A stretch of 64,000 nt of DNA, taken from NCBI GenBank assembly GCA_963797565.1, contig CAWCPM010000002.1, forward strand, positions 321,560-385,559. Reading direction: 5' to 3'. The position numbers were made by a program, and so were the translations under genes. The notes under the pieces were generated by a model that made no database searches, was not told the DNA's origin, and saw only the letters and a list, made by a program, of their open reading frames with translations. Below, one piece after another: positions 2,982 through 43,300 of the stretch. The stretch comes from an uncultured Actinomycetes bacterium. GTDB lineage: Bacteria; Actinomycetota; Thermoleophilia; Gaiellales; JAICJC01. Every line of letters starts with the position of its first letter. Position 1 is the stretch's first letter.

Positions 2982-3000
2982 CCTCTACAAGGATCCTTCC

Positions 3001-4020: not shown

Positions 4021-4074
4021 GTGTCCTCTCAGACGCGCGCCGCGGTAATCCGGTTCCTGAGCAGCACCTCTCGA

Positions 4075-11070: not shown

Positions 11071-11075
11071 GCGGA

Positions 11076-11986: not shown

Positions 11987-12869
11987 GCTCGTCGCGCACG
12001 ATCGACGCAACCCGCTCGCGGTCCTGGCGCAGCCCGTACGGTCCCGCCCGGTAGGCGTCCCGGTGCAGGTCGACCAGCGCCGGCAGCTCCCGCTCCAGCC
12101 ACTCGAAGTAGTGCTCGCGCACGCCCGGGCGCAGGTGCAGGAGGATCGGGCTGACGTGATCGGCGCCGGCGTCCAGGCAGGTCCGGGTCAGCCGCCGGAT
12201 CTGCTCCTCACCGTCGCTGATCCCGGGCAGGATCGGCGCCATCAGCACGGACGGCCGCAGCCCCGCCGCGGCCAGCCGCGAGATCGCCTCCAGCCGACTG
12301 CTGGGCGACGCTGCACCCGGCTCGCTGATCCGCGCCACCGCATCCTCGTCGGTGCCGATCGACATCGCCACGCTCACACGCGTGCGCCCCGCGGCCTCGC
12401 TCAGCAGGTCGATGTCGCGCACGATCAGCGACGACTTGGTCAGGATCGAGAACGGGTTGCGCCGCCGTGACAGCACCTCCACCAGCCCCCGCGTCAGCCG
12501 GTAGTGGCCCTCGGCCGGCTGGTAGGGGTCGGTGTTCGTGCCCATCGCGATCGAGTCGCCGCCCCAGGCGGGATCCTCCAGCTCGCGGTCGAGCTTCTCG
12601 ACCGCGTTCACCTTGACCACGATCCGCCGCTCGAAGTCCTCGCCCGAGTTCAGGCCCAGGTACTCGTGCGTGGGCCGAGCGAAGCAGTACGTGCAGGCGT
12701 GCCGGCAGCCGCGGTAGACGTTGATGGTGTGGCGGAACGGCATCCGGGACGAGGCCGGCAGCGTGTTGATGATCCGCCGCGCGTTGACCGCCATGTACTC
12801 CACGCTGGGCAGCTCTCGCTGCTCGGGGCCGAACAGCGCCAGCTGCGGTTCATCAGGTAGCCACCGCAT
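11895..12869 (-). CDS. radical SAM protein (Rv2578c-like / SPL-related family)
   Basis: CxxxCxxC cluster motif in ..YRGCRHACTYCFARPTHEY... A perfect LexA box lies 14 nt upstream of the start. Confidence 0.8.
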   Translation of the reverse strand: MRWLPDEPQLALFGPEQRELPSVEYMAVNARRIINTLPASSRMPFRHTINVYRGCRHACTYCFARPTHEYLGLNSGEDFERRIVVKVNAVEKLDRELEDPAWGGDSIAMGTNTDPYQPAEGHYRLTRGLVEVLSRRRNPFSILTKSSLIVRDIDLLSEAAGRTRVSVAMSIGTDEDAVARISEPGAASPSSRLEAISRLAAAGLRPSVLMAPILPGISDGEEQIRRLTRTCLDAGADHVSPILLHLRPGVREHYFEWLERELPALVDLHRDAYRAGPYGLRQDRERVASIVRDELSARAGGCPAGSGSAGGDRTRIPQRTHRGQ

Positions 12870-31289: not shown

Positions 31290-33134
31290 GTGAGCCCGCA
31301 CACACACAAGCTCCGCGATGACATCCGAAACATCGCGATCATCGCCCACGTTGACCATGGCAAGACCACCCTCGTGGACGCGCTGCTGCAGCAGTCAGGC
31401 ACGTTCGCGGCGCACGCCGAGGTGGTCGACCGGATCATGGACGCCGGGCTCGAGCGCGAGCGCGGCATCACGATCCTGGCCAAGAACGCGGCCTGCCGCT
31501 ACCACGGCACCAAGATCAACATCATCGACACTCCCGGGCATGCCGACTTCGGCGGCGAGGTCGAGCGCGGCCTGACGATGGTTGACGGGGTGCTGCTGCT
31601 GGTCGACGCCAGCGAGGGGCCGCTGCCGCAGACCCGGTTCGTGCTGCGCAAGGCGCTGGCCGCGCGGCTGCCGGTGATCCTGGTCGTGAACAAGGTCGAC
31701 CGGCCCGATGCCCGCGCCGCCGAGGTGGTGAACGAGATCTACCAGCTGTTCTTCGATCTCGACGCCGACGAGTCGCAGATCGATTTCCCGATCGTCTACA
31801 CGATCGCCCGCGACGGCCTGGCCTCACTCACGGAAGACGATCAGGGTACCGACATGCATCCGCTGTTCGAGTTGATCCTCGACCGGGTGCCGCCGCCGCG
31901 CTACCACGAGGGCTCCCCGTTCCAGGCCCGCGTTGCCAACCTCGACTCCTCCCCCTACCTGGGCCGGCTCGCGCTCTGCCGCGTGCACGAGGGCGAGCTC
32001 AACAAGGGCGAGATGGTGGCGTGGTGCAAGGCCGACGGCACGATCACGCGCACCAAGATCACCGAGATGTTCGTTGCTGAGGGGCTCGATCGGGTGGCGG
32101 CCGATCACGTCGGGCCGGGCGAGGTGATGGCCGTCGCCGGCCTCCAGGAGATCATGATCGGCGAGACGATCGCCGACGCCGAGGACCCCCATCCGCTGCC
32201 GGTGATCAAGGTGGACGAGCCGTCGCTGGCGATGACGCTTGGCACCAACTCCTCGCCGTTCGCAGGCCGCAGCGGCTCGAAGCTGACGGCGCGCATGATC
32301 AAGGACCGGCTCGACCGCGAGCTGGTCGGGAACGTCAGCCTGCGGGTGTTCGACACCGACCGGCCGGACACGTGGGAGGTGCAGGGTCGCGGCGAGCTGC
32401 AGCTGGCGGTGCTGATCGAGCTGATGCGGCGCGAGGGCTTCGAACTCACGATCGGCAAGCCGCAGGTGGTCACGCGCGAGGTGAACGGCAAGGTCTGCGA
32501 GCCGGTGGAGCGGGTCACGATCGACGTGCCGGAGGAGTACTCGGGCACGGTGATCCAGGCGCTGGCGGTGCGTAAGGGGCGGATGGAGCAGATGACCAAC
32601 CACGGGTCGGGATGGGTGCGGCTGGACTATGTGATCCCGGCCCGCGGCCTGCTCGGGTTCCGTACCGAGTTTCTGACCGAGACGCGCGGCACCGGCATCC
32701 TGCACCACGTGTTCGATCGCTACGAGCCCTGGCACGGCGAGATCAGCGGCCGCCAGAACGGCTCGCTGATCGCTGACCGCGTCGGGCCGGCGTCGAGCTA
32801 CGCGATGACCAACCTGCAGGAGCGCGGAGTGCTGTTCGTGTCCCCCAGTGAGGACTGCTACGAGGGCATGCTGGTCGGCGAGAACGCCCGCGCGGACGAC
32901 CTCGACGTGAACATCGCCAAGGCCAAGCAGATGACCAACGTCCGTTCCAACGCCGATGTGCTGGTGCGCCTGGCGCCGCCACGCCTGCTCAGCCTCGACC
33001 AGGCGCTCGAGTACATCGAGGAGGACGAGTGCGTCGAGGTCACGCCCGACGTGATCCGCCTGCGCAAGGTCGAGCTGTCGGCGTCGAGGCGTCAGAGCCA
33101 GCGGTCGAAGAGCAAGCGCGACGCGCGTGAGTGA
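31290..33134 (+). CDS. typA: translational GTPase TypA/BipA
   Basis: ..IRNIAIIAHVDHGKTTLVD.., ..DTPGHADFGGEVER.., ..NKVDR... Full-length similarity to BipA. GTG start. Confidence 0.9.
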   Translation: MSPHTHKLRDDIRNIAIIAHVDHGKTTLVDALLQQSGTFAAHAEVVDRIMDAGLERERGITILAKNAACRYHGTKINIIDTPGHADFGGEVERGLTMVDGVLLLVDASEGPLPQTRFVLRKALAARLPVILVVNKVDRPDARAAEVVNEIYQLFFDLDADESQIDFPIVYTIARDGLASLTEDDQGTDMHPLFELILDRVPPPRYHEGSPFQARVANLDSSPYLGRLALCRVHEGELNKGEMVAWCKADGTITRTKITEMFVAEGLDRVAADHVGPGEVMAVAGLQEIMIGETIADAEDPHPLPVIKVDEPSLAMTLGTNSSPFAGRSGSKLTARMIKDRLDRELVGNVSLRVFDTDRPDTWEVQGRGELQLAVLIELMRREGFELTIGKPQVVTREVNGKVCEPVERVTIDVPEEYSGTVIQALAVRKGRMEQMTNHGSGWVRLDYVIPARGLLGFRTEFLTETRGTGILHHVFDRYEPWHGEISGRQNGSLIADRVGPASSYAMTNLQERGVLFVSPSEDCYEGMLVGENARADDLDVNIAKAKQMTNVRSNADVLVRLAPPRLLSLDQALEYIEEDECVEVTPDVIRLRKVELSASRRQSQRSKSKRDARE

Positions 33135-33186
33135 CCATGCGAACCGATAACGCTCAACCGTCGTACAACAATTACCGACGGAATAG

Positions 33187-33215
33187 TTGCGTTTGCCCGA
33201 AACGTTCTGTATGTT
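33187..33215 (+). promoter_or_regulatory. candidate sigma-70-type promoter TTGCGT-17-TATGTT
   Basis: The -35/-10-like hexamers have 17-nt spacing and sit in the AT-rich stretch after typA, 10 nt before a small ORF (ATG 33226). Confidence 0.35.
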
Positions 33216-33225
33216 GGGAGTCGCA

Positions 33226-33333
33226 ATGACGAAATTGTCTGACATCGAAATGTTCGCCGCCCGATCGACCTCCGTCGATCCGGTGACACATGGCCGGCTG
33301 GATAGCCAGCCCGGCACGGAGGCCCTCGCCTAG
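33226..33333 (+). CDS. possible 35-aa small ORF (MTKLSDIEMFAARSTSVDPVTHGRLDSQPGTEALA)
   Basis: Below the ORF-track cutoff. GGGAG lies 5 nt upstream of the ATG. Followed by hairpin repeat R1. No homology judgement is possible. Confidence 0.25.
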   Translation: MTKLSDIEMFAARSTSVDPVTHGRLDSQPGTEALA

Positions 33334-33371
33334 GACCTGGATTCGAGCAACAGCTCACCACAGGACCACGC

Positions 33372-33397
33372 GAGGGCGACTCACACGAGTCGCCCTC
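33372..33397 (+). repeat. hairpin repeat R1 (gagggcgact-cacacg-agtcgccctc)
   Basis: 10-bp perfect stem. Shares the core GAGGGCGA..TCGCCCTCA(R)TCGTT with R2. Confidence 0.6.
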
Positions 33398-33643
33398 AGT
33401 CGTTAACAACACATCACGCGCGATCCGAACGAAGGACACGAACACCACCATGACCGCGACAACCTTGAACACCGCCATGCTGACCGGCGCCTGGGCGAAA
33501 CACCTCGCCCCTGCGACGCCGCCGCATGCCTGTGATCGGGGTGTCGAAGCCTCTGATACCAGCGTGCAGCCCCGCGCGGACACCCTCATCTCAAGGAGCG
33601 TGCAGACCTAGAAACGGGTCAACGACACGCAATCCGGCGAGAT

Positions 33644-33669
33644 GAGGGCGATCCCAAGGGGTCGCCCTC
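33644..33669 (+). repeat. hairpin repeat R2 (gagggcga-tcccaagggg-tcgccctc)
   Basis: 8-bp outer stem with the same arms as R1. Followed by aatcgttta (R1 is followed by agtcgttaa). Confidence 0.6.
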
Positions 33670-33742
33670 AATCGTTTAAGCCCTCCCAGGTCGGGAGCAT
33701 CAGCAGAGAGGCTCGAATCCTCTCAAGGGCAATCCGGGAAAA

Positions 33743-33856
33743 CCCTGGCGCTGCTGGGGAGGACTCGCACAGTGCCGCAAGGCGTGCGGGGGCCGGCCCT
33801 CCACGAGGAGGAGTCCGGTTGGGAACTCGGGGACCTGACGAGAGAAAACGCCAGGG
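33743..33856 (+). ncRNA. candidate structured RNA of unknown class
   Basis: Nested helices seen by eye: ccctggcg(33743-50)/cgccaggg(33849-56); ggactc(33761-66)/gagtcc(33811-16), which encloses gcc-GCAA-ggc (a GNRA tetraloop hairpin) and cctcc-acga-ggagg. Confidence 0.3.
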
Positions 33857-33916
33857 GACCGATACCGACGGCTGAGAGGGAACTGGAGCTGATGTGCACG
33901 TGGTGAAGTTATTCGC

Positions 33917-33989
33917 GGCGCCGTGACCGAGTGGCTCAGGTAGCAGGTTGCAACCCTGCTCTAGGACGGTTCGATTCCGTCCGGCGCCT
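33917..33989 (+). tRNA. tRNA-Cys(GCA)
   Basis: Acceptor ggcgccg/cggcgcc, anticodon stem gcagg/cctgc with loop ttGCAac, T arm gacgg-ttcgatt-ccgtc. No encoded CCA. Confidence 0.85.
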
Positions 33990-34031
33990 CTCCGGATCCG
34001 CGGGATAGTTGATAGGTAACACCGATACCGT

Positions 34032-34104
34032 GGGGTGGTAGCTGAGACGGTCCAAGCGCCCGGTTGAAGCCCGGGAGACGAGGATTCGAGCGCCTCTCAC
34101 CCCA
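34032..34104 (+). tRNA. tRNA-Phe(GAA), atypical T stem
   Basis: Acceptor ggggtgg/tcacccc, anticodon stem cccgg/ccggg with loop ttGAAgc. T arm gagga-ttcgagc-gcctc has an A-G mismatch at the normally G53-C61 pair. Confidence 0.65.
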
Positions 34105-34119
34105 CCTTTTGACACCTTT

Positions 34120-34191
34120 GGGGGTGTGGCTCAGTGGCAGAGCATCCGCTTGTCGAGCGGTAGGTCGCGAGTTCGATTCTCGCCATCCCCG
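34120..34191 (+). tRNA. tRNA-Asp(GTC)
   Basis: Acceptor gggggtg/catcccc, D stem gctc/gagc, loop ttGTCga, T arm gcgag-ttcgatt-ctcgc. Confidence 0.8.
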
Positions 34192-34216
34192 TGCAGTAAC
34201 GGACGTTTCACCACAC

Positions 34217-34299
34217 ACCGGCATGGCGGAATGGGTAGACGCGCTGGTCTCAGAAACCAGTGGAGATTCTCCGTGGGGGTTCGACTCCCTCTGCCGGTA
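34217..34299 (+). tRNA. tRNA-Leu(CAG), type II
   Basis: Acceptor accggca/tgccggt (A1-U72), D region gcggaatgggtagacgc, anticodon stem ctggt/accag with loop ctCAGaa, long variable arm ggagattctcc, T arm ggggg-ttcgact-ccctc. Confidence 0.85.
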
Positions 34300-34312
34300 C
34301 TCGCTGAGCTTC

Positions 34313-34388
34313 GGGGGATGGGACTGCTGGGAGTGGTCACTCGGTTTGCACCCGGGACTACAGGCGGGTTCGATGCCCGCATCCTCCA
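34313..34388 (+). tRNA. tRNA-Ala(TGC), atypical variable region
   Basis: Acceptor gggggat/atcctcc, anticodon stem ctcgg/ccggg with loop ttTGCac, T arm gcggg-ttcgatg-cccgc. The 7-nt variable region and a one-nt 8-9 connector are unusual. Confidence 0.65.
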
Positions 34389-34408
34389 CTCGCACGTGCA
34401 CGACACTT

Positions 34409-34482
34409 GCCCTCGTAGCTCAATGGACCAGAGTGCCAGGCTTCGAACCTGGTGGTTGGAGGTTCGAATCCTCCCGAGGGCT
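34409..34482 (+). tRNA. tRNA-Arg(TCG)
   Basis: Acceptor gccctcg/cgagggc, D arm tagctcaatggaccagagt, anticodon stem ccagg/cctgg with loop ctTCGaa, T arm ggagg-ttcgaat-cctcc. Confidence 0.88.
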
Positions 34483-34489
34483 TCGCGAT

Positions 34490-34573
34490 GGGGATGCACT
34501 GGGAATGCGGCGATCCCAAGTGGCTGTAAACCACCCGCCTCCGGCTCTGGCAGTTCGACTCTGTCCGTCCCCA
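34490..34573 (+). tRNA. tRNA-Tyr(GTA), type II
   Basis: Acceptor ggggatg/cgtcccc, loop ctGTAaa, variable arm gcc-tcc-ggc, T arm ggcag-ttcgact-ctgtc. Confidence 0.8.
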
Positions 34574-34583
34574 CTCATCAAAT

Positions 34584-34656
34584 GCCTCTGTAGTTCACTG
34601 GACAGAACGCGAGCGTGCGAAGCTCGAGGCCGGAGGTTCGATTCCTCCCAGAGGCG
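34584..34656 (+). tRNA. tRNA-Arg(GCG)
   Basis: Acceptor gcctctg/cagaggc, anticodon stem cgagc/gctcg with loop gtGCGaa, T arm ggagg-ttcgatt-cctcc. G34 rather than the usual bacterial A34. Confidence 0.8.
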
Positions 34657-34666
34657 TGCACCCCAC

Positions 34667-34738
34667 GGCGAGTGGGGTCTGGCGATCCGGCAGCTCTCAT
34701 ACGGCTGCGCCAAGCCGGTTCGATTCCGGCGCTCGCTA
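34667..34738 (+). tRNA. tRNA-Met(CAT)-like, atypical D arm
   Basis: Acceptor ggcgagt/gctcgct (G1-U72 and U7-G66 wobbles), anticodon stem cagct/ggctg with loop ctCATac, T arm gccgg-ttcgatt-ccggc. The D arm folds as 5 bp plus a 4-nt loop. Initiator, elongator or Ile2 identity cannot be decided. Confidence 0.55.
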
Positions 34739-34743
34739 TCCAT

Positions 34744-34818
34744 GGTGGCCGTAGCTCAAAACGGTAGAGCCCCTGGTTGTGGACCAGGCGGTTGCCGGTT
34801 CGAACCCGGCCGGTCACC
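34744..34818 (+). tRNA. tRNA-His(GTG) with encoded G-1
   Basis: G-1 at 34744 opposite C73. Acceptor gtggccg/cggtcac, D stem gctc/gagc, loop ttGTGga, T arm gccgg-ttcgaac-ccggc. Confidence 0.88.
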
Positions 34819-34831
34819 CCTCCTGACACCC

Positions 34832-34903
34832 AGGGGCGTGATGTAAAGGCCAGCATGCGAGGCTCCAACCCTCGTCGTCCGGGTTCGACCCCTGGCGCCC
34901 CTG
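34832..34903 (+). tRNA. tRNA-Trp(CCA)
   Basis: Acceptor aggggcg/cgcccct (A1-U72), anticodon stem cgagg/cctcg with loop ctCCAac, T arm ccggg-ttcgacc-cctgg. The only member followed by CCA (34904-34906). Confidence 0.8.
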
Positions 34904-34923
34904 CCAAGCGCTGCACCACCCCA

Positions 34924-35017
34924 GTCGCGGGCCGACGCACGTCGGTTCTCGTGGACCCACTCACAATGGGGCCGGGTTCGATCCCCGGCATTCCGGCATG
35001 CACCTCATGACCGCGAC
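34924..35017 (+). ncRNA. tRNA-derived RNA 1 (Y-RNA-like paralog; not a functional tRNA fold)
   Basis: Has a 5' acceptor-like strand gggccga, D arm cacg-tcggttct-cgtg, a hairpin with loop ctcacaa and T arm ccggg-ttcgatc-cccgg. It has no variable region and no 3' acceptor strand. The ends gtcgcgg/ccgcgac pair 7/7, and the flanks are shared with element 2. Confidence 0.5.
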
Positions 35018-35036
35018 GCTGACGACGCAAACGCCC

Positions 35037-35170
35037 GACGCGGGCCGACGCGCACTGGTTACCACTGTGAATGGTCCAGGTAGCAGGTTCGACTCCTGCC
35101 CGGCCGGAGCGATCCGGCCAGTAGCTCAACGGTAGAGCGGGAACTCCAGTCCGCACCACATGACCGCGTC
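35037..35170 (+). ncRNA. YrlA-type Y RNA candidate (circularly permuted tRNA-like RNA)
   Basis: Order along the strand: ggtcc, 5-nt aggta, T arm gcagg-ttcgact-cctgc (35083-99), ccggccg, loop gagcgatc, cggccag (a closed acceptor-like helix), ta, D arm gctc-aacggta-gagc (35124-38), g, ggaac. The terminal stem gacgcgg/ccgcgtc pairs 7/7. It ends 36 nt before the rsr ATG. Confidence 0.7.
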
Positions 35171-35206
35171 ATTCCATCCACTCGATCTCCCGAAAGGAGG
35201 CCACCC

Positions 35207-36871
35207 ATGTCGTATCTGACCCGACTCCACAACCTCGCGACCACACAGCGCGAGCGCCTGCGCACCGACCAGGTGCCGAACTCCGAGGGCGGCTACGTCT
35301 GGGAGGTCGACATCTGGACGCGGCTGCGCCGGTTCCTGATCCTCGGCTCCGAGGCCGGCTCGTTCTACGCGTCGGAGCGGAAGCTGACGATCGCAAACAC
35401 ACGAGCGCTCGATGCCTGCATCGAACAGGACGGCGCCCGCACCGTCGAGCTGATCGCCGAGATCAGCGAGGCCGGCCGGGCACCGAAGAACGACCCGGCC
35501 GTGTACGCGCTGGCACGATGCGCGTCGGCGGCCGACGTCGTCACACGCCGGGCGGCGCTGGCAGCCCTGCCGCGAGTGTGCCGAACCGGCACCCACCTGT
35601 TCCAGTTCGCGACCATCGTGAACGAGCAGCGCGGATGGGGCCGGGCGCTGCGGCGCGCGGTGGGAGCGTGGTACGCAGCACGGGACGCGGACGCGATCGC
35701 CTACCAGGCGGTCAAGTACCGCCAGCGGGAGGGGTTCACCCACCGCGACGTGCTGCGGCTCGCGCACCCGGCGCGGCTGGTCTCGGCCGGCAACCCGACG
35801 CTGGACATCTCGACCGAGCAGGCTCGCCTGTTCGAGTGGATCGTCCGGGGCGGGGACACCGACGGGCTGCCGCGCATCGTCGAGGGCTACACCCGCGCAC
35901 AGCGGGCCGGATCGGCCGATGAGGCCGCCCGGCTGGTGCGTGAGTACCAGCTGCCGCGGGAGGCGCTGCCGTCGGAGCACCTGACCAGCTCCGCGGTTTG
36001 GGAGGCGCTGCTCGAGACGATGCCGATGACGGCGATGATCCGGAACCTGGCGACGATGACGCGCGTGGGCCTGCTCACGCCGGGATCGCCGTCGGTGCGG
36101 CTGATCACCGAGCGGCTGTCGGATGGCGCGCGGATCCGCAAGGCCCGCGTCCACCCGATCGCGCTGCTGGTGGCGGCGCGCACCTACGCCTCCGGGCGGG
36201 GTGTCCGCGGCCACGCCTCCTGGACGCCGGTAACCGCCATCGTCGACGCGCTCGACGAGGCCTTCTACCTCGCGTTCGGGAACGTCCAGCCGACCGGCAA
36301 GCGGCTGCTGCTCGCGCTCGACGTGTCGGGGTCGATGACCTTCGGCTCGATTGCGGGCATGCCGGGGCTCACGCCCCGGGACGCATCGGCAGCGATGGCG
36401 CTGGTCACGCTGGCCGTCGAGCGACACGTCGAGGTGGTCGGCTTCCACGCCGGCCGCGGCGGCTGGGTCGCTCGTCGTCGGGGACGGTTCCAGGGGCGCG
36501 CCGACGCCCTCACGCCGCTCCCGCTGTCGGCTCGGCAGCGCCTGGACGACGCGGTCCGCCGCGTGTCCGACCTGCCGTTCGGCGGCACCGACTGTGCCCT
36601 GCCGATGCGCTACGCGCTGGAGCAGGGACGGGCGGTCGACACGTTCGTGATCTACACCGACTCGGAGACCTGGGCTGGGGACATGCACCCGGCCGAGGCG
36701 CTGCGCCGCTACCGCCAGAGCACCGGCATCGCGGCACGGCTGGTCGTGGTCGGAATGGTCGCGAACCGCTTCACCATCGCCGACCCGAACGACGCCGGCA
36801 TGCTCGACGTCGTCGGGTTCGACACCTCGACACCGCAGGTGATCGGCGGGTTCGCCCGTGGCGAGCTGTAA
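35207..36871 (+). CDS. rsr: Ro60-related protein Rsr (TROVE + vWA domains)
   Basis: ..QVPNSEGGYVWEVDIWTRLRRFLILGSEAGSFYASERKLT..ISEAGRAPKNDPAVYALA.. closely follows the Rsr/Ro60 N-terminus as I remember it. The C-terminal vWA domain has a MIDAS motif, LLLALDVSGSM. SD GGAGG is upstream. Confidence 0.85.
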   Translation: MSYLTRLHNLATTQRERLRTDQVPNSEGGYVWEVDIWTRLRRFLILGSEAGSFYASERKLTIANTRALDACIEQDGARTVELIAEISEAGRAPKNDPAVYALARCASAADVVTRRAALAALPRVCRTGTHLFQFATIVNEQRGWGRALRRAVGAWYAARDADAIAYQAVKYRQREGFTHRDVLRLAHPARLVSAGNPTLDISTEQARLFEWIVRGGDTDGLPRIVEGYTRAQRAGSADEAARLVREYQLPREALPSEHLTSSAVWEALLETMPMTAMIRNLATMTRVGLLTPGSPSVRLITERLSDGARIRKARVHPIALLVAARTYASGRGVRGHASWTPVTAIVDALDEAFYLAFGNVQPTGKRLLLALDVSGSMTFGSIAGMPGLTPRDASAAMALVTLAVERHVEVVGFHAGRGGWVARRRGRFQGRADALTPLPLSARQRLDDAVRRVSDLPFGGTDCALPMRYALEQGRAVDTFVIYTDSETWAGDMHPAEALRRYRQSTGIAARLVVVGMVANRFTIADPNDAGMLDVVGFDTSTPQVIGGFARGEL

Positions 36872-36876
36872 CACGG

Positions 36877-36911
36877 CCCGGGCAGGGAGCGTTCGTGACT
36901 CCCTGCCCGGG
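36877..36911 (+). terminator. 13-bp perfect hairpin after rsr (cccgggcagggag-N9-ctccctgcccggg)
   Basis: Starts 6 nt after the rsr stop. No U-tract follows, so it could be a terminator, an attenuator or a processing/stability element. Confidence 0.5.
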
Positions 36912-36933
36912 GGCGGTCGAACGGCACGCACCT

Positions 36934-37006
36934 GGACGCATAGCTCAGCAGGTAGAGCGCTCGCCCGACATGCGAGAGGTGCCAGGTTCGACCCCTGGTG
37001 CGTCCA
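36934..37006 (+). tRNA. tRNA-Val(GAC) with C33
   Basis: Acceptor ggacgca/tgcgtcc, D arm tagctcagcaggtagagc, anticodon stem ctcgc/gcgag with loop ccGACat (C rather than U at position 33), T arm ccagg-ttcgacc-cctgg. Confidence 0.7.
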
Positions 37007-37008
37007 TT

Positions 37009-37082
37009 GCCCGCGTAGCTCAGAGGATGAGAGCGCTCCGCTCCTACCGGAGAAGCCGCACGTTCGAGTCGTGCCGCGGGCG
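37009..37082 (+). tRNA. tRNA-Arg(CCT)
   Basis: Acceptor gcccgcg/cgcgggc, anticodon stem ctccg/cggag with loop ctCCTac, T arm gcacg-ttcgagt-cgtgc. Only 2 nt after tRNA-Val. Confidence 0.88.
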
Positions 37083-37085
37083 CCT

Positions 37086-37158
37086 GGGGTCATAGCTCAA
37101 CTGGCAGAGCGCCCGGCTCTTAACCGGGAGGTTGGGGGATCGTTGCCCTCTGACCCCA
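37086..37158 (+). tRNA. tRNA-Lys(CTT), non-canonical T loop
   Basis: Acceptor ggggtca/tgacccc, D arm tagctcaactggcagagc, anticodon stem cccgg/ccggg with loop ctCTTaa. T arm ggggg-atcgttg-ccctc, where A and U replace the usual T54 and A58. Confidence 0.7.
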
Positions 37159-37178
37159 TCTGCGGGTCTGCACATCGT

Positions 37179-37262
37179 GGAAGCGATCCGGCTGGATCAG
37201 GAGCCTGTCTCGAAAACAGGTAGGAGGGTCACCTCTTGGGCGTTCGAGTCGCCCCGCTTCCG
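37179..37262 (+). tRNA. tRNA-Ser(CGA), type II
   Basis: Acceptor ggaagcg/cgcttcc, anticodon stem cctgt/acagg with loop ctCGAaa, long variable arm aggagggtcacctctt, T arm gggcg-ttcgagt-cgccc. Confidence 0.85.
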
Positions 37263-37321
37263 CTCGCCTTCGCGGTCTTCGACGGCATCCGGCCGACGCG
37301 GTGGCCCGGTAGAGTCGCGCG

Positions 37322-37909
37322 ATGGCAGACTTTGAGTGCGCAGTCGTTGCCGAGTCTGAGCGAGATCGGGCGACTCGCGTCCTGGTGTCGGCGTTCGAGG
37401 ATGACCCTGTTGAGCGCTGGCTCTATCCGGATGACGCCGTCTATCGAGACCATTTTCCGGCGTTCATCGCGGCGTTCGGCGGTGACGCGTTCCACGATCA
37501 GACCGTCTGGCGGCTGGGGGATTTCGACGCGGTGGCGTTCTGGTTTGCGCCGGGGCGCGAGCCAGATGGCGCCGCGGTGGTACGAGTACTGGTGGAGACG
37601 ACTGCCGAACATCTGCACGCTGATTCGTTCGCGACGTTGGAGCAGATGGCCGAGGGGCATCCCGCAGGCCAGCACTGGTACCTGCCGTGGTTTGGAGTGC
37701 AGCGCACCCTCCAGGGACGGGGACTCGGCACGCATCTCATGCGCCACTGCCTGGAGATCGTGGACGCGAGTGGCTTCCCGGCGTACCTGGAGACGCCGAA
37801 CCCGCGAACCGTGCCGTTCTACGAGCGCGCCGGATTCACGGTCACCGGGACTGCTCAGGCGGGAGCCTGCCCTCCGATCACCATGATGCAGCGGGCCCCG
37901 CGCAGATAG
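37322..37909 (+). CDS. GNAT family N-acetyltransferase
   Basis: Acetyl-CoA motif ..VQRTLQGRGLGTHLM.. and C-terminal ..YLETPNPRTVPFYERAGF... Confidence 0.8.
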   Translation: MADFECAVVAESERDRATRVLVSAFEDDPVERWLYPDDAVYRDHFPAFIAAFGGDAFHDQTVWRLGDFDAVAFWFAPGREPDGAAVVRVLVETTAEHLHADSFATLEQMAEGHPAGQHWYLPWFGVQRTLQGRGLGTHLMRHCLEIVDASGFPAYLETPNPRTVPFYERAGFTVTGTAQAGACPPITMMQRAPRR

Positions 37910-37954
37910 CGCGACTGCACGCGCGAGGCGCCCTTGACGACGGTGCCGGGAACG

Positions 37955-38042
37955 GGATGGGTGGCAGAGTGGGAATGCAGCGCCCTGCTACGGCGTAGGC
38001 CGGCCGCGAGCCGGTCCGCGGGTTCGATCCCCGCCCCATCCG
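37955..38042 (+). tRNA. tRNA-Ser(GCT), type II
   Basis: Acceptor ggatggg/cccatcc, anticodon stem gcgcc/ggcgt with loop ctGCTac, long variable arm ggccggccgcgagccggtc, T arm gcggg-ttcgatc-cccgc. Confidence 0.85.
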
Positions 38043-38056
38043 TCGACGCATGACTT

Positions 38057-38128
38057 TCCGGAGTGGCCGAGTGGACAGGCGCACGGTTGTTACCCGTGAC
38101 CACGTGGGTTCGATCCCTACCTCCGGAG
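38057..38128 (+). tRNA. tRNA-Asn(GTT)
   Basis: Acceptor tccggag/ctccgga (U1-A72), anticodon stem cacgg/ccgtg with loop ttGTTac, T arm gtggg-ttcgatc-cctac. Confidence 0.8.
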
Positions 38129-38139
38129 CTGGCTCAAAA

Positions 38140-38215
38140 GGGGGGCAGGTGTCCGTGGTCTTCGGCACGCTCGTCTGATACGCGAGAGGGCTTGGTTCGA
38201 CTCCAGGGTCCCCCA
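38140..38215 (+). tRNA. tRNA-Ile(GAT)
   Basis: Acceptor ggggggc/gtccccc, large 12-nt D loop, anticodon stem ctcgt/gcgag with loop ctGATac, T arm cttgg-ttcgact-ccagg. Confidence 0.78.
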
Positions 38216-38220
38216 CTCGA

Positions 38221-38291
38221 TGCGAGGTCGTCTAACGGCAGGACGCCTGGCTCTGACCCAGGTAATCGGGGTTCGAAACCCTGCCTCGCAG
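38221..38291 (+). tRNA. tRNA-Gln(CTG)
   Basis: Acceptor tgcgagg/cctcgca (U1-A72, as in bacterial tRNA-Gln), anticodon stem cctgg/ccagg with loop ctCTGac, T arm cgggg-ttcgaaa-ccctg. Confidence 0.82.
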
Positions 38292-38298
38292 CCATCAC

Positions 38299-38370
38299 GG
38301 CACCATCGGCTAACGGATAGGCCGCCGGGTTCTCAGTCCGGAGATCGGAGTTCGAATCTCCGTGGTGCTA
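38299..38370 (+). tRNA. tRNA-Glu(CTC)
   Basis: Acceptor ggcacca/tggtgct (G1-U72), anticodon stem ccggg/tccgg with loop ttCTCag, T arm cggag-ttcgaat-ctccg. Confidence 0.8.
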
Positions 38371-38377
38371 TCACCCT

Positions 38378-38450
38378 CGGGATGTGGCGCAGTTGGCAGC
38401 GCGCGCGGTTCGGGACCGCGAGGCCGCACGTTCGAATCGTGCCATCCCGA
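38378..38450 (+). tRNA. tRNA-Pro(CGG)
   Basis: Acceptor cgggatg/catcccg (C1-G72, typical of bacterial tRNA-Pro), D stem gcgc/gcgc, anticodon stem cgcgg/ccgcg with loop ttCGGga, T arm gcacg-ttcgaat-cgtgc. Confidence 0.88.
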
Positions 38451-38477
38451 CTCTAAAGAGTCGAAATCCCTAGACCC

Positions 38478-38549
38478 GCCTCCGATGTGTTTCTGGCAGC
38501 ACGCTCGGTTTGTACCCGAGAAGATACGGTTCGACTCCGTACGGAGGCT
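38478..38549 (+). tRNA. tRNA-Thr(TGT)
   Basis: Acceptor gcctccg/cggaggc, anticodon stem ctcgg/ccgag with loop ttTGTac, T arm tacgg-ttcgact-ccgta. Confidence 0.85.
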
Positions 38550-38551
38550 CT

Positions 38552-38884
38552 GGTGTCATCCGGAGGGCATCCCATCGCGGGCCGCGGCAGCGCGGCTCGA
38601 GGAAGGTCCGGACTCGCATGCGCGGGCGACCGCGCATCAAACCGCCCCGGGCGAATACCCCGGGCGACGCGCAGGTGGCGCTGCGCGGACGTGCCTGGCA
38701 ACAGCGACGATGACCGCCCCGGCCGCTCTGGCCGCGGATGCCGCGGGTGAAACGGGCTACAGGCAGCGGGCGAGCAACCCCAAGCGTCCGGTCTCACGAA
38801 GACCGGCAGGTCGGGGGCATAGATGGATGATGGGACGCGCCTCGGCGCCGACAGAATCCGGCCTATCGCCCCCCGGCTGACACC
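38552..38884 (+). ncRNA. rnpB: RNase P RNA, bacterial type A
   Basis: P1 ggtgtcatccggaggg / ccccccggctgacacc. Conserved blocks: cGAGGAAgGTCCGGaCtC (P4 5' strand), atCAAACCGCC, GGGTGAAACGGG, GGCAACAG, GAGCAACCCCAA, TAGATGGATGA, ACAGAATCCGGCCTATCG. About 333 nt. Confidence 0.85.
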
Positions 38885-38894
38885 GCATCACCGA

Positions 38895-38966
38895 GCGACC
38901 GTGGTCAAACGGCAACGACTCCTGGCCTCCAACCAGGCGATACGGGTTCGATCCCCGTCGGTCGCT
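38895..38966 (+). tRNA. tRNA-Gly(TCC) with C33
   Basis: Acceptor gcgaccg/cggtcgc, anticodon stem cctgg/ccagg with loop ccTCCaa (C at position 33), T arm acggg-ttcgatc-cccgt. Confidence 0.7.
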
Positions 38967-39030
38967 CCTCGTTCTCGATCGGTACCGGCGCGACCGCCGT
39001 CGCGATAGGCTGGTTCGGGGTGATCGTGCG

Positions 39031-40266
39031 ATGGAGGACCTTCCCAGCGGAACCGTCACACTCCTCTTCACCGACGTCGAAGGGTCGACGTTGCTCGTCC
39101 AGGCGCTGGGTGCCGCCTACCAGTACGCGCTGGACGGGCACCGCCAGATCCTGAGGGACGCGGTCGCGTCGCACGCGGGCCGCGAGGTGGATTGCCGCGC
39201 CGACGAGTTCCTGGCCTGCTTCCCACGCGCATCCGACGGCCTGGCGGCGGCGATCGCCGCGCAGCTGGCGCTGACGTCGGAGGATTCCCAGCTGCGGGTG
39301 CGGATGGGACTTCACACCGGTGAGCCGGAGCTGATCGGCAACGCGTACATCGGGATCGATGTCAACCGGGCATCGCGAATCTGCGCGGCCGGCCACGGCG
39401 GGCAGATCCTGGTGTCCCAGACCACCCGCGATCTGGCGTCGACAGCCGTCCAGTTCCGCGATCTCGGCACCTACCTGCTCGCCGGCGTCGAGCAGGCCGA
39501 GCGGATCTTCGAGGTGCGCGCCCCCGGTCTGCGCACCTCGTCGCTGCCGCTCCGGGCCGAGCACGACACGGGTACCCCGGTCCGCCGCCGGCGTGGCCTG
39601 CGGCCGCGGCGCGCGCCGGCCTCGTCGCAGCTCGCCGAGACCGCCTGGCGGGCACGGAAGCTGGTCGAGCCGGGGCCGCTCCGTGACGCGCTCACGGGGC
39701 TTGCGGCGGCGCTGTTCGACGCCGACCGCGCCGTCCACCGAGCCGAAGCGCTGCTGGGGAAGATCGACCGCCACCGCATCGCCCGCAGGTTGGCCGAGCA
39801 GCGCGAGCTGTCGCTCGTGTCTCCCCCGGTGGCCGAGCTTGCCGCCGGGACAGACGCGAAGCTGGCCTGCCTCGACCGTCTCGGCGATGACGCCCAGGTC
39901 GTATCCGACCTGGGCGCCGAGGCTGCCGCGCTGCTCGATCGGTCATTCAGCGCCCACGCGGTCGAGCAGATCTGTGAACGGCTGAACCTGGCGATAGGCA
40001 CCCTGGACGGGCAGATCACGGTCACCGCCCGCGCGCACGACGCGCTCAGCTACCGGTTGGCGCGCACCCGCTGGCGCGGCGTGTACCGGCTGGACGCGCT
40101 CTACGTCGTCCCCTACCACGACGAGCTGGGGATCGAGCGCCAGCCCGAGTTCACGGACGCCGGTGAGGCCCGCCGCTTCCGCGAAGGCGTCAAGCTGGCC
40201 CGCCAGGCCAGGAATCGAGGACTCGGCTTCGACCTTCCATGGGATGGATCATCGGGTGGGTCCTGA
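39031..40266 (+). CDS. class III adenylate/guanylate cyclase-domain protein with uncharacterised C-terminal half
   Basis: N-terminal ..GTVTLLFTDVEGSTLLVQ..DEFLACF..RVRMGLHTGEP..GIDVNRASRICAAGHGGQILVS.. is a CYTH-unrelated class III cyclase fold. Residues from about 190 to 411 are helical and Arg/Ala-rich with no motif recognised. Confidence 0.65.
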   Translation: MEDLPSGTVTLLFTDVEGSTLLVQALGAAYQYALDGHRQILRDAVASHAGREVDCRADEFLACFPRASDGLAAAIAAQLALTSEDSQLRVRMGLHTGEPELIGNAYIGIDVNRASRICAAGHGGQILVSQTTRDLASTAVQFRDLGTYLLAGVEQAERIFEVRAPGLRTSSLPLRAEHDTGTPVRRRRGLRPRRAPASSQLAETAWRARKLVEPGPLRDALTGLAAALFDADRAVHRAEALLGKIDRHRIARRLAEQRELSLVSPPVAELAAGTDAKLACLDRLGDDAQVVSDLGAEAAALLDRSFSAHAVEQICERLNLAIGTLDGQITVTARAHDALSYRLARTRWRGVYRLDALYVVPYHDELGIERQPEFTDAGEARRFREGVKLARQARNRGLGFDLPWDGSSGGS

Positions 40267-40295
40267 CTCAAACGGGTCGCCGGCCGCCCGTGCTC

Positions 40296-40369
40296 GCGCG
40301 AGTAGCTCAGCCAGGTAGAGCACCTGCGCCACATGCAGGGTGCCGGCGGTTCGAACCCGTCCTCGCGCA
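40296..40369 (+). tRNA. tRNA-Val(CAC) with C33
   Basis: Acceptor gcgcgag/ctcgcgc, D arm tagctcagccaggtagagc, anticodon stem cctgc/gcagg with loop gcCACat (C at position 33), T arm ggcgg-ttcgaac-ccgtc. Abuts the protease gene stop. Confidence 0.7.
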
Positions 40370-43300
40370 TTACGACAGGGAGACGGTTGCGCTGCCCGTG
40401 TAGTCGTTGTACGGGTCGAGCACGATCGTGTAGGTGCCGGCCACCGGCGCCGTCAGCCCGAACGAGGTCGAGCCCAGCACCCACGACGGCGACAGCAGCG
40501 CCGTGCCGTCCGGACGCAGCACCGAGACGCGCATGATCGGGACGCTGACCGCGCTCAGGTTCAGCATCAGCGACTGCCCGGCCGTGGCAGTGAACGTGAC
40601 CGCCCCACCCTGGCCGGGAGCATTCATCGCAGCCGTGAACCCAGGCCCGCCCTGCGTGATCGACCCGGCCGCATCCGGCGGCACGTCGTAGACGGTCACC
40701 GACAACGGTCCTGTTGAGGCGTCGAACGGATCCACGGCGATGGTGTAGGTGCCGGACACCGGCAGCGTGGTCACGTCGATGAAGGTGTTACCCGGCGCCA
40801 TGGTCGCGAGCAGGATCGTGGCGTCCGGCTTGCTGACGGTGAACCGCACCGACATCGCCGTCGTGAGGCGGAAGCTGACCCGCTCGCCGGCCACGCCGTT
40901 GAAGCTGACGAGCCCGTTCTGGCCGGGCACCGTGATCGGGATCGAGGCCGCGGCGCCGCCGGGCGTGGTCGTCGCAGACGCGTCGGCCGGGACGCTGAAG
41001 GCGGTCAGCGTCATCGTCACCGCCGAGCCGCCCGACGGGTCGATCACGATCGTGTAGGTGCCGGTGGCCGGCAGCGTGTGGGTGTCGAGGAAACCGCCCG
41101 ACGAGGAGACGTAGAAGGTCGCGAAGATGGAGCCGTCCGGCGCGCGCACATCGAGCCGCGTCTGCGGCAGCGCGCTGCCGGTGACCGTCATGCTCATCCG
41201 CGTGCCGGCCACCCCGGCGAACGTGATGCCGGCGTTCTGTCCGGCGCCCAGCGAGATCGTGAGCGGCGCTCCGCCCACGGTGATGCTGCCGGTGAGATCG
41301 ACCGGCACACCCAGCACCTGGACGGTGGCGCTGCCCACCGCCGCCCCCTGCGGATCGATGCGGATCGTGTAGGTGCCGCTGGCCGGAAGCGCGATCGCGT
41401 CGATGAAGCCGCCCGAGCCGTAGGCGATGGTGGAGCCCGCAGGTGACACCAGCGTCACCGACGTGGCGGCCATGCCGGAGGTGCTGTAGCTGACGCTGAC
41501 CGACTGGCCGGCCGCGCCCGGGAACGTGACCGAGGCGTTCTGGCCGGGCACCGTGGTGGTGAGCGTGACCGGTGCTGCTGCCACCGAGGTGGTCGCCGTC
41601 GGATCGGGCGGCACGTCGTACAGCGTGTAGCTGACGCTGCCGGTGCCGACGTCCTGGGGGTCGGCCACCACCGTGTAGGTGCCGGTCTGCTTGAGCGTGG
41701 CCGCGTCCACGAACGAGGTGCCGGCGCCGGTGTAGCCCGGCCCCGCGAGCACCGTGCCGTCCGGGTTCAGGATCGACGTCTTCAGCAGGTAGAAGGTGGA
41801 GCTGACACCGAGGCTGACGCGCCGGCCGGCCACGCCGCTGAACGTGAACAGCGCGTTCTGGCCCGCCGCCGTTGTGGTGGCCGACGCGGGAGCGCCGCCC
41901 GGCGTGATGGTGGTCGTGACGTCGGGCGGCACGTCGTAGAGCGTCAGCGTGACCGGCCCGGTGCGCTCGTCCTGTGGGTCGGCCAGGATCGTGTACGTGC
42001 CGTCGGAGGGCAGCTGCACGGTGTCGATGAAACCGTTGCCGGCGCTCGTGTAGAGCGGCCCCGCCAGCTGCGTCCCGCCCGGCCCGATGATGATCGTCTT
42101 CAGGAAGCTGATGCTGCTGGACGTGGCCAGCGCCACCCGCCGCCCGGCCGCGCCCGTGAAGCTGGCGACCGCGTTCTGGCCGGGCACGGTGGTGGTCAGC
42201 GTCACCGGAGGCCCGCCGGGGCTGATCGCCGCCGTCGCATCCGGCGGCACGTTGAAGAGCTGGATCGCCATGCTGCCGCCGCCCGCCTGCAGCGGGTGCA
42301 CGCGCACCACGTAGCTGCCGGACTGCTGCAGCGTGAACGAGTCGATGAACGCGCTGCCGGTGGACAGCGTCTTCGAGGCGGCCGTGGACCCGTCCGGGTT
42401 GCTGATGGTGACGGTGCTGCTGGTGATCGTCGACGCCGACAGCAGGGCGCTCACGCGCGTGCCGGCGGTGCCGTCGAAGGCGAGCAGCTGGTCCTCGCCG
42501 GCACCCGAGGTGACGGTGACCGGCGCTCCGCCGATCACGATCGGGCTCGGCGATACGCCGGTGACGCTGCCGCTGTCGGTGCCGCCGCTGCTGGTGGCCG
42601 TGGCGGTAACGGTGGTGCTGCCCGGGGCGGGCGTGAACTGGCCGGTGTAGCTGCCGTCGCCCTGGGCCGTCAGCGCGACCGGCTGGCCGTTGGCGGCCGC
42701 GGTGACGGTCACGCCCGCGAGGTCGCCGCAGACGCCGGCCAGCAGGCGCACGGTCACCGGGTGGCCGGCGGCGGCCACGAAGCCCTGGCCGGGAGCGTCG
42801 ATCACCAGCTGCGGCTTGTTGCTGCAGGTGAGCGCGTTTCCGGCGTCGAGACGGCCCTGGCTGGCGCTGGTGCCGGCGAGTGCCGCGGGGCGGTCGACCG
42901 TGCGCAGCAGCAGCGCCTTGATGGTGTCGGCGGTGGCGGCCGGATGCGCGGCCAGCACCAGCGCGGCCGCACCGGCCACGTGAGGCGAGGCCATCGAGGT
43001 GCCGCTCTCGGACTTGTAGGCCTTGCCCGGCCAGGTCGAGTAGATGCTGACGCCGGGCGCCGCCAGATCGACGCTGCTCTGCCCGTAGTTCGAGAAGTAG
43101 GCGAGATGGTCGGTCGAGTCGCTGGCACCCACCGAGATGATGTTGGGCAGATCGAAGTCGGCCGGGTAGGTGGGCGTCGTATCGCTGTTCGTGCCGTCGT
43201 TGCCTGCAGCGGCAACGAACAGGTCGCCGTGCGCGTTCGCGTCGGCGATGGCGTCATACAGGGCCTGCGAGTACTCGGTGTCGCCCCAGGAGTTGTTCGT

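Follow-up and report, generated by a model that had tools for sequence, protein, structure and literature searches.

A remodelled RNase P RNA homologue between tRNA genes in a chromosomal island of a Gaiellales bacterium

Introduction

As far as we know, the accepted view is that bacteria possess a single stand-alone rnpB gene for RNase P RNA and that phages rely on the RNase P of their hosts. Here we analyze a 64,000-nt stretch of the chromosome of an uncultured Gaiellales bacterium (hereafter the window), in which a 333-nt RNase P RNA homologue lies inside a dense array of tRNA genes. Three kinds of systems are related to such a locus in part. Ro60/Rsr, Y RNA (YrlA) and RtcB form RNA-repair loci, such as rsr-yrlBA-rtcBA of Salmonella. 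In mitochondria, non-tRNA genes obtain their ends from the processing of the flanking tRNAs, an arrangement known as tRNA punctuation. In engineered conjugates of RNase P RNA and pre-tRNA, the tethered ribozyme can cut its substrate in cis.

The known bacterial RNase P RNAs differ in their peripheral helices. Type B RNAs contain P5.1, P10.1 and P15.1 and lack P6, P13, P14, P16 and P17, and type C RNAs (Thermomicrobium) have lost P13/P14 convergently; both are natural RNase P RNAs without P13/P14, and both are active enzymes (PMC2858038). A tRNA array unit is a region in which tRNA genes are unusually numerous and dense (PMC5966550), and such arrays have been proposed to be anti-defence devices (PMC12803027). 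By this density criterion the window contains a tRNA array unit, with 22 called tRNAs and one missed tRNA-Tyr in 6.5 kb on one strand.

Results

Identification of the RNA between two tRNA genes

Covariance-model and manual alignments indicate that region 38552-38884 of the window is an RNase P RNA homologue. In a permissive cmscan, the class A model RF00010 aligned end to end (model positions 1-367) at 38559-38881, with E-values of 2e-5 in a 651-nt search and 2.1e-4 in a 7.1-kb search. The aligned parts are P1, P2, P3, the P4 5' block, J5/15, the P15/P16 hairpin, the AGAUGGAUGA junction, the P4 3' block and the P1 3' strand. The score amounts to 23.5 bits against a gathering score of 100, and is this low because the model skips the specificity domain. 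Two related copies on other contigs (L011 and L013; see below) reach 30.1 bits, likewise below 100, and on the class B model RF00011, whose gathering score is 97, the near-identical L001 copy scores 34.2 bits. A default Rfam scan of the whole window at the gathering threshold returned tRNAs only and no RNase P RNA; threshold-based Rfam annotation overlooks RNAs of this kind.

The RNA is separated by 1-2 nt from the preceding tRNA-Thr and by 10 nt from the following tRNA-Gly, and all three lie on the same strand. An earlier sequence-only reading of this DNA had described the same embedding, with gaps of 2 and 10 nt, and ARAGORN and Rfam bear it out; the coordinates 38552-38884 and all the sequence blocks that it quoted are present in the sequence. 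The same reading saw no room for a promoter or terminator of the RNA's own. This agrees with the tight tRNA gaps, and it fits the absence of any sigma-70-like promoter or intrinsic terminator from either strand of 33100-40500, in a scan that is weak for an actinobacterium of 70% GC. That reading had also named two findings that would speak against it, a poor covariance-model score and the loss of the P4 3' strand: the score is indeed poor, so that the reading would fail by its own first criterion, and both P4 strands are present and paired at 8 of 8 positions.

The catalytic domain

A manual secondary-structure model comprises 93 nested pairs and eight P4 pairs, 101 in total, all of which are canonical in the window sequence (Table 1). 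As judged from the sequence and this model, the catalytic core is intact and includes P1, P2, P3, P4, P5, J5/15, P15-P16 with GGU, and an equivalent of J18/2. P1 consists of 16 pairs, made up of nine of the 11 pairs of the Rfam register and seven outer pairs. P2 is paired throughout (7/7; UCCCAUC/GAUGGGA), and P5 is CUCG/CGAG, with its 5' strand at 38613-38616. The conserved CR-I (GAGGAAAGUCCGG) and CR-V (ACAGAAnCCGGCUUA) blocks, including the bulged U, form the P4 pseudoknot and are invariant in the nine copies aligned below. P16 is a simple 7-bp hairpin. The J5/15-P15 motif is present as GAGCAA-CCCC...CAGGUC-GGGG and contains, at the sequence level only, the GGU for the pre-tRNA 3'-CCA; the array tRNAs have no encoded CCA. 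Both the RF00010 alignment and the manual model leave 0 nt at the position of P18.

Comparison with canonical relatives (P2, P4, P3) provides stronger structural evidence than covariation within the family. Relative to P2 of the phage copy L007 (GACGGCC/GGCCGUC), both sides are changed at five of the seven pairs with pairing kept. The seventh P4 pair carries a family-specific swap from A-U to G-C that is absent from the compared actinobacterial relatives and phage copies; four Bipolaricaulota genes likewise have G-C at this pair.

The specificity domain

According to the manual model, the specificity (substrate-recognition) domain is remodelled, with a P5.1-like brace in place of P13/P14, P18 and P6/P17. 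The six inner pairs of this inserted hairpin are invariant, its two basal pairs are missing from some copies, and the length of the P12 loop differs among copies. P13/P14 are absent: just GGGC lies between GUGAAAC and the 3' strand of P10/11, a region that RF00010 skips by local ends. P17 with the P6 pseudoknot is also absent, the J5/7 partner of P6 being replaced by the inserted hairpin. When the L001 copy is aligned to the class B model, P5.1 corresponds to the GNRA hairpin, P7 to CCGC/GCGG and P8 to the following hairpin, and J11/12 (ACAGCGACGAUG) and the stretch after P12 fit this model better than that of class A. The counterparts of CR-II/CR-III in J11/12 and J12/13, GCAACAGCGACGAUGA and GGGUGAAAC, are present in a diverged form nearer the class B consensus, with a fold not fixed by covariation.

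We treat the RNA as a new structural variant of RNase P RNA that belongs to neither class A nor class B, because it combines helices in another way and fails both Rfam thresholds. The earlier description as an RNase P RNA of compact type A is thus supported as regards homology and not supported as regards type, given the 23.5-bit score, the lack of P13/P14 and the P5.1-like insert. The block CAAACCGCC, which that description counted among the type-A blocks, appears to be a single-stranded linker followed by the P7-like 5' strand and not J11/12-P12.

An alternative fold, in which the inserted GNRA hairpin would be P8 and the next hairpin, which resembles the P9 of this lineage, would be P9, was considered and rejected on two grounds: it would leave P8 outside the CCGC/GCGG closing helix and P9 inside it, and the P5.1/P7/P8 assignment has the support of the class B model.

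Conservation among related copies

Related copies were retrieved from metagenomes by a DNA pattern (L009, L010, L011 and L013) or through the neighbouring Ro60 gene (L001, L050 and L056-L060). Nine independent copies, the window included (window, L001, L009-L011, L050 and L056-L058), constitute alignment A4; L013 was aligned separately, and L059 and L060 are nhmmer matches. The mean column identity of A4 is 95%. The RNA occupies the same array position in all nine copies, and tRNA-Thr(tgt), the RNA and tRNA-Gly(tcc) follow one another in every copy whose contig extends that far.

Conservation of the RNA is near that of the tRNAs and extends to both the core and the specificity domain. Between the window and L050, identity is 95.3% for the RNA, 97.3-97.7% for the tRNA blocks, 89.7% for the Ro60 coding sequence and 76.9% for a spacer; in L056 the RNA is almost identical, with a Ro60 protein of only 77% identity. 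Under the manual model, variable columns make up 11 of 202 paired and 25 of 136 unpaired columns in the nine copies (Fisher p = 2.4e-4), and the differences cluster in hairpin loops and in one P1 bulge. The model pairs hold in 98.8% of cells across the nine copies, as compared with about 40% when the partners are slid by 1-3 columns. The 1-2-nt insertions and deletions among copies are located in loops, and they rule out a conserved reading frame. The RNA thus appears to be under purifying selection.

A further observation concerns A4 columns 137 and 195 (window 38687/38741), where L011 and L013 jointly carry G->A and C->U, turning G-C into A-U. This may reflect a long-range pair or a coincidence; the pair, which would form a pseudoknot with P10/11, was not adopted.

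Counterparts in phage tRNA arrays

A search of IMG/VR with a pattern for the two P4 strands matched 47 contigs, in at least 16 of which the match is abutted by tRNAs within arrays of 10-36 tRNAs. Thirteen of these array loci (L006, L007, L066, L069, L078, L082, L085, L087, L090, L092, L096, L102 and L104) score 181-280 bits on RF00010. In all 13, the gap between the upstream tRNA and the RNA is 0-6 nt, and another tRNA follows downstream. The phage contigs measure up to 463 kb, some exceeding 100 kb, and L006 is a real phage, because a Mu-type portal gene (PF06074, 3.6e-31; phrog_113) adjoins its array.

The flanking tRNAs fall into three conserved arrangements. In high-GC phages the order is Thr(ggt)-RNA-Gly(gcc) (L006, L007, L087 and L104; L082 shows the upstream Thr only), and the others are Leu(cag)-RNA-Arg(tcg) and Cys(gca)-RNA-Gly(tcc). 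The Thr-RNA-Gly order of the window is that of the high-GC class. The window RNA and L007 also share the lack of P18 and a P19-like hairpin, and the sequences of the L066, L069 and L078 copies suggest that these lack P13/P14 too. When the L007 copy was compared with GenBank phages, it matched two unannotated metagenomic records only. No match was obtained with a strict window-type pattern in viral contigs, with the window RNA in a distant blastn search of plasmids, or with the whole array by megablast against PLSDB plasmids and INPHARED phages.

Three further array elements (L074 4314-4598(-), L097 6813-7110(-) and L106 9054-9392(-)) consist of a P1-P4 5' part and a J18/2-P4 3' frame around an unrelated middle, and they are not among the RF00010 matches at the gathering score. 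They may be members of a second, highly divergent family of RNase P-like RNAs borne on arrays; on the evidence of these three, divergence of the middle of the molecule recurs in arrays.

Stand-alone relatives in cellular genomes

The 3' core pattern of the window RNA was searched in 185,579 species-representative genomes. It gave 35 matches, mostly in Solirubrobacterales metagenome-assembled genomes (MAGs); all are stand-alone genes, and no tRNA lies within 300 nt of any of the 35. Six of them were scored on RF00010 and reached 153-221 bits, the full-length matches to stand-alone Solirubrobacterales rnpB accounting for 206-221 bits. In these full-length genes P15 leads straight into GCAUAGAUGGAUG and there is no P18. 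The loss of P18 is thus not peculiar to the window RNA, since the scored housekeeping rnpB genes of Solirubrobacterales are also without it.

One MAG (MFD04967.bin.2.153) seemed to contain two rnpB genes (L022 5940-6284 and L023 3381-3725). It was rejected as a case of two rnpB genes in one genome: the two matches are equal in score and length (220.8 bits, 345 nt) and the same tRNA lies about 1 kb upstream of each, so that they are probably an assembly duplicate.

The tRNA array and the island around it

The array is divided into four blocks (33917-34906, 36933-37160, 37955-38968 and 40296-40369) that span about 6.5 kb. Spacers within the blocks are 0-26 nt long, save one 41-nt spacer and a 100-nt gap that holds the missed tRNA-Tyr; in the Val-Arg-Lys block at 36933-37160 they are as short as 0-1 nt. 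After nearly all array tRNAs, a U occurs within 1-2 nt of the discriminator.

The genes of the island follow one another in the order PHP-domain protein, TypA/BipA-like GTPase, ten called tRNAs with the missed tRNA-Tyr, Y-RNA-like region, Ro60, three tRNAs, GNAT acetyltransferase, seven tRNAs, the RNase P-like RNA, tRNA-Gly, adenylate-cyclase-domain protein, tRNA-Val, S8 protease (on the opposite strand), a 212-aa open reading frame (ORF) without a Pfam match, and RtcB. The full tRNA set, the BipA-like GTPase, Ro60/Y RNA and RtcB look like a combined translation back-up and RNA-repair set.

Table 1 Positions in the window of the RNase P RNA homologue, its structural elements and the neighbouring genes
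Feature	Position	Strand	Evidence or remark
RNase P RNA homologue, 333 nt, P1 5' end to P1 3' end	38552-38884	+	RF00010 full-length alignment; 101-pair model; pairing in nine copies
P1 5' strand (38552-38569) and P2 5' strand (38570-38576)	38552-38576	+	Partners: P1 3' 38866-38884, P2 3' 38829-38835
P3 hairpin, 9 bp, GCAG loop	38578-38599	+	Loop variable among copies
CR-I / P4 5' strand GAGGAAGGUCCGGA	38599-38612	+	8/8 pairs with 38857-38864
Inserted P5.1-like hairpin, GNRA (GCGA) loop, directly after P5 5' strand	38618-38637	+	Class B model aligns the hairpin to P5.1
P7-like 5' strand CCGC (38642-38645), P8-like hairpin (38646-38664), P9-like hairpin (38668-38687)	38642-38687	+	
P10/11-like UGCCUG/CAGGCA (38692-38697/38760-38765), J11/12 GCAACAGCGACGAUGA (38698-38713), P12 (38714-38746), GUGAAAC junction (38747-38759), P7-like 3' strand (38766-38769)	38692-38769	+	
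P5 3' strand CGAG, J5/15 CAA, P15 (CCCC/GGGG), P16 hairpin with 3' internal loop including GGU; no P17/P6	38771-38816	+	Stems invariant, P16 loop variable
GCAUAGAUGGAU (J18/2 equivalent, no P18 before it), P2 3' strand, P19-like hairpin (38837-38848), CR-V / P4 3' strand ACAGAAUCCGGCCUA	38817-38864	+	
tRNA-Thr(tgt)	38478-38550	+	ARAGORN (Rfam end 38549); 3' processing would create the 5' end of the RNA
tRNA-Gly(tcc)	38895-38968	+	ARAGORN and Rfam; RNase P cleavage site would set the 3' end of the RNA (+10 nt)
tRNA array, 22 called tRNAs and one missed tRNA-Tyr	33917-40369	+	ARAGORN
TypA/BipA-like translational GTPase	31290-33134	+	Pfam; upstream island edge; same gene order on L001
Y-RNA-like (YrlA) match upstream of Ro60	35075-35143	+	RF02553 35.4 bits, sub-threshold (gathering 69)
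Ro60/Rsr orthologue inside the array	35207-36871	+	Pfam TROVE 7e-46, vWA_Ro60 2e-60
RtcB RNA ligase	44931-46283	+	Pfam PF01139 1.4e-70; downstream island edge; adjoins the array on L057 too

The flanks of the window consist of ordinary chromosomal genes (PafBC-like regulator, QueG, GlpX, CcmF, ZnuABC, peptidases and histidine kinase), and no phage or plasmid hallmarks were found among the window genes. GC content is about 0.70, and 0.65-0.69 around the array. The GlpX protein belongs to a cluster of at least 90% identity with Gaiellales proteins, which makes a host in this order of Thermoleophilia (Actinomycetota) probable. At the start of the window, 14-2017 (+) encodes a protein of 667 aa that combines two WYL/WCX units with a PafC-type HTH, a make-up suggestive of a fused PafB-PafC-like regulator.

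The gene content of the island is variable: the GNAT gene of the window is replaced by a different ORF in L050, and L056 contains a partial inverted duplication, in which the array start (Cys...Gly, Val-Arg-Lys-Ser), a truncated Ro60 and a BipA fragment occur twice in inverted orientation (1438-4851(-) and 8639-12050(+)). The location of the RNA in a variable chromosomal island gives indirect support to the suggestion of the sequence-only reading that it may be a second, island-borne copy. In two related Thermoleophilia islands (L051 8026-11850 and L052 7956-11922), 20 tRNAs lie directly upstream of Ro60 and two or three downstream, and neither island contains an RNase P-like RNA. Linkage of a tRNA array to Ro60 seems to be widespread in Thermoleophilia, with RNase P RNA as an optional component there.

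Several smaller features of the array and its relatives were also seen. The missed tRNA-Tyr(gta)-like sequence, at roughly 34490-34575 in the gap 34483-34582 between two tRNA-Arg genes, is 1 nt off the tRNA-Tyr(gta) called on L057; neither ARAGORN nor Rfam at the gathering score called it in the window. At 34906/34907, as compared with L057 2104-2177, the window is without the tRNA-Gly(gcc) that follows tRNA-Trp in related arrays, a clean deletion of about 70 nt. The spacer of about 300 nt before Ro60 (34907-35206) is highly conserved relative to L057 and has two tRNA T-arm-like motifs; on the strength of these motifs, this conservation and the sub-threshold YrlA match, it probably encodes one or two Y-RNA-like genes. 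In the Gaiellales locus L053 (4662-8608, GCA_036273515.1), the RNA-repair pair Hen1 and Pnkp lies directly upstream of a Ro60 gene with a few tRNAs on its flanks, which is a further combination of Ro60 and RNA-repair genes; Hen1 and Pnkp adjoin Ro60 in L054 (Gaiellales) as well.

Discussion

Origin and maturation of the RNA

The RNA is probably an accessory RNase P RNA whose gene belongs to a tRNA-array island that a Gaiellales chromosome acquired horizontally, probably from a phage; it would be transcribed as part of the array and freed by tRNA processing. The sequence comparisons establish the homology of the RNA, its intact core, the helices maintained by compensatory changes, the conserved tRNA-bracketed position and the phage counterparts, and they point to purifying selection.

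We infer the following course of events. The array would be transcribed into long precursors. Removal of the 3' trailer of tRNA-Thr by RNase Z or an equivalent enzyme would create the 5' end of the RNA with at most 2 extra nt, and cleavage by RNase P at the 5' end of tRNA-Gly would create its 3' end with 10 extra nt. Since the tRNAs are packed 0-26 nt apart and have no CCA, one RNase P cut would largely define two ends. Release by tRNA-processing enzymes had been suggested in the earlier reading, and the suggestion is strengthened by the equally tight bracketing in the 13 phage arrays. Because the catalytic domain is intact, binding of RnpA and RNase P activity are to be expected: the released 333-nt RNA is predicted to bind the host RnpA and to cleave 5' leaders. 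It might act in trans on the many precursors of the array, or initially in cis on the adjacent tRNA-Gly. A plausible benefit would be additional processing capacity, stoichiometric with about 23 tightly packed, CCA-less tRNAs made simultaneously.

Several observations weigh against this interpretation. The Rfam scores, 23.5 bits on the class A model and 34.2 bits on the class B model (L001 copy), are both far under the respective thresholds. Covariation within the family is not significant in the nine copies: the sole compensatory pair, C-G/U-G/U-A in the P9-like hairpin (A4 columns 120/135), is equalled in 46 of 500 shuffles, the signal being weak because the copies are too similar. In some copies P3 and the base of the P5.1-like hairpin are not fully paired, and the fold of the specificity domain rests on homology and the manual model. 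Finally, sequence similarity does not clearly place the window RNA nearest to the phage copies: its best partial matches are the stand-alone L021 and the phage copy L007, at about 65-80% over segments.

Alternative explanations

Could the window RNA be the only RNase P RNA of its organism, the housekeeping molecule, left after the original rnpB was lost following acquisition of the array copy? Its catalytic core is intact and strongly conserved, and the default Rfam scan revealed no other RNase P RNA within the 64-kb window. We nevertheless regard this as quite unlikely. The L051 and L052 islands have very similar arrays and lack the RNA, so that their hosts must process tRNAs with another gene; the content of the island varies, as the exchange of GNAT for another ORF in L050 and the partial inverted duplication in L056 illustrate; all 35 genome matches of the shared 3' core are stand-alone and free of neighbouring tRNAs, the six scored ones at 153-221 bits; and the Thr-RNA-Gly arrangement is common to phages. 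On this indirect evidence we favour an accessory copy, with a separate housekeeping rnpB inferred in the same genome.

A repurposed or decaying relic without cleavage in trans, serving as a structured precursor spacer, as an element acting only in cis for tRNA-Gly or as a sponge for RnpA or Ro60, is somewhat easier to imagine, and we still consider it improbable. The specificity domain, which normally recognizes the T-loop, is heavily altered, with P13/P14, P18 and P6/P17 missing; in L074, L097 and L106 nothing but the P1-P4 frame survives, which hints that the middle is under relaxed constraint; and the nearby Ro60 and Y-RNA-like genes bind structured RNAs. A relic, however, would hardly be conserved almost as highly as the tRNAs, in the specificity domain and the core alike, nor would it be expected to keep, with compensatory changes, all the elements known to be needed for catalysis (P4, J5/15, the J18/2 equivalent and the GGU of L15), and loss of P13/P14 is compatible with activity, as types B and C are active enzymes without them (PMC2858038). 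That the region contains no RNA gene at all, being a chance resemblance or protein-coding, is effectively refuted. Mechanically called ORFs do overlap it (e.g., 38362-38880 (+)), the Rfam score is sub-threshold and the folding z-score is only -2.26; against this stand the end-to-end RF00010 alignment (E = 2e-5), the frame-breaking insertions and deletions among conserved copies, the depletion of substitutions in stems and the collapse of pairing once partners are slid.

Significance

If a conserved, remodelled second RNase P RNA is indeed encoded in a tRNA array, then mobile elements carry their own copy of the ribozyme, and the full-scoring copies that at least 13 phage contigs carry in this arrangement would likewise show this. 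In a full-text literature search, with subscription journals thinly covered, we found no report of a phage-encoded, tRNA-array-embedded or duplicated bacterial RNase P RNA, and RNase P is unmentioned in the jumbo-phage literature searched, major reviews included; a prior description of an array-embedded RNase P RNA is possible.

A wider proposal can also be made, which we consider somewhat less likely than not. Array-embedded RNase P RNAs may be a hitherto undescribed, recurrent accessory of large phages and phage-derived islands, making arrays self-sufficient in 5' processing. The window RNA would then be a new structural variant, with its P5.1-like hairpin and without P13/P14, P17/P6 and P18, that owes its ends to tRNA punctuation and may act in cis. 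Together with the tRNA set, the BipA-like GTPase, Ro60/Y RNA and RtcB, it might form a back-up translation and RNA-repair island, of use when phage or toxins attack host tRNAs or RNase P. Such loci would provide a concrete functional link between tRNA arrays, as proposed anti-defence devices, and Ro60/Y RNA and RtcB. As natural experiments, they would also show to what extent the specificity domain tolerates rebuilding, and the loss of P13/P14 may be another independent case besides types B and C.

Comparison with known systems

With class A RNase P RNAs (RF00010; Escherichia coli M1 RNA, Thermotoga maritima), the window RNA shares P1-P2-P3, the P4 pseudoknot with CR-I/CR-V, P5, the GAGCAA of J5/15, P15-P16 with the GGU internal loop and the AGAUGGAUGA junction; the missing P18 is a loss that it has in common with the housekeeping genes of Solirubrobacterales. 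It differs from class A in its score (23.5 versus 100 bits), in the absence of P13, P14, P17 and P6, in the extra GNRA hairpin after P5, in a single helix that takes the place of P7 plus P10, and in its position between tRNAs rather than as a stand-alone gene. Class B (Bacillus type, RF00011) and type C resemble it in being without P13/P14, and class B does so additionally in a hairpin at P5.1 and in J11/12 (ACAGCGACGAUG) and the stretch after P12, which are near the class B consensus. In contrast to class B, the window RNA has no recognizable P10.1, P15.1 or P18, retains a P15-P16 hairpin of the class A type and scores, on the L001 copy, 34.2 versus 97 bits; its host is an actinobacterium and not a Firmicute or a member of Chloroflexi.

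The IMG/VR phage array RNAs agree with the window RNA in beginning 0-6 nt after one tRNA and being followed by another, in the order Thr-RNA-Gly in the high-GC ones. They pass the Rfam threshold (181-280 bits) and reside on phage genomes, whereas the copy in the window lies on a chromosome, has diverged much further and is linked to Ro60 and RtcB. Loci of the Salmonella Ro60-YrlA-RtcB type correspond to the window in the Ro60 orthologue, in a tRNA-like, Y-RNA-like element just upstream of it and in RtcB nearby; in the window a full tRNA array and an RNase P RNA are intermingled with these genes, and the Y RNA match is sub-threshold (35.4 versus 69 bits). Mitochondrial punctuation and the engineered conjugates belong to another biological system and to an artificial construct, respectively; the window RNA would be a natural analogue of the ribozyme-substrate conjugates.

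The tRNA array units of Mycobacterium, found on chromosomes, plasmids and phages (PMC5966550, PMC12803027), share with the window a dense array covering nearly all amino acids, an actinobacterial host, mobile DNA and interleaved non-coding RNAs. The RNAs reported from them are tmRNA and an unnamed structured RNA of about 430 nt, with RNase P, Ro60 and RtcB unmentioned (PMC5966550, PMC12803027), whereas the array of the window contains an RNase P RNA homologue and is linked to both proteins.

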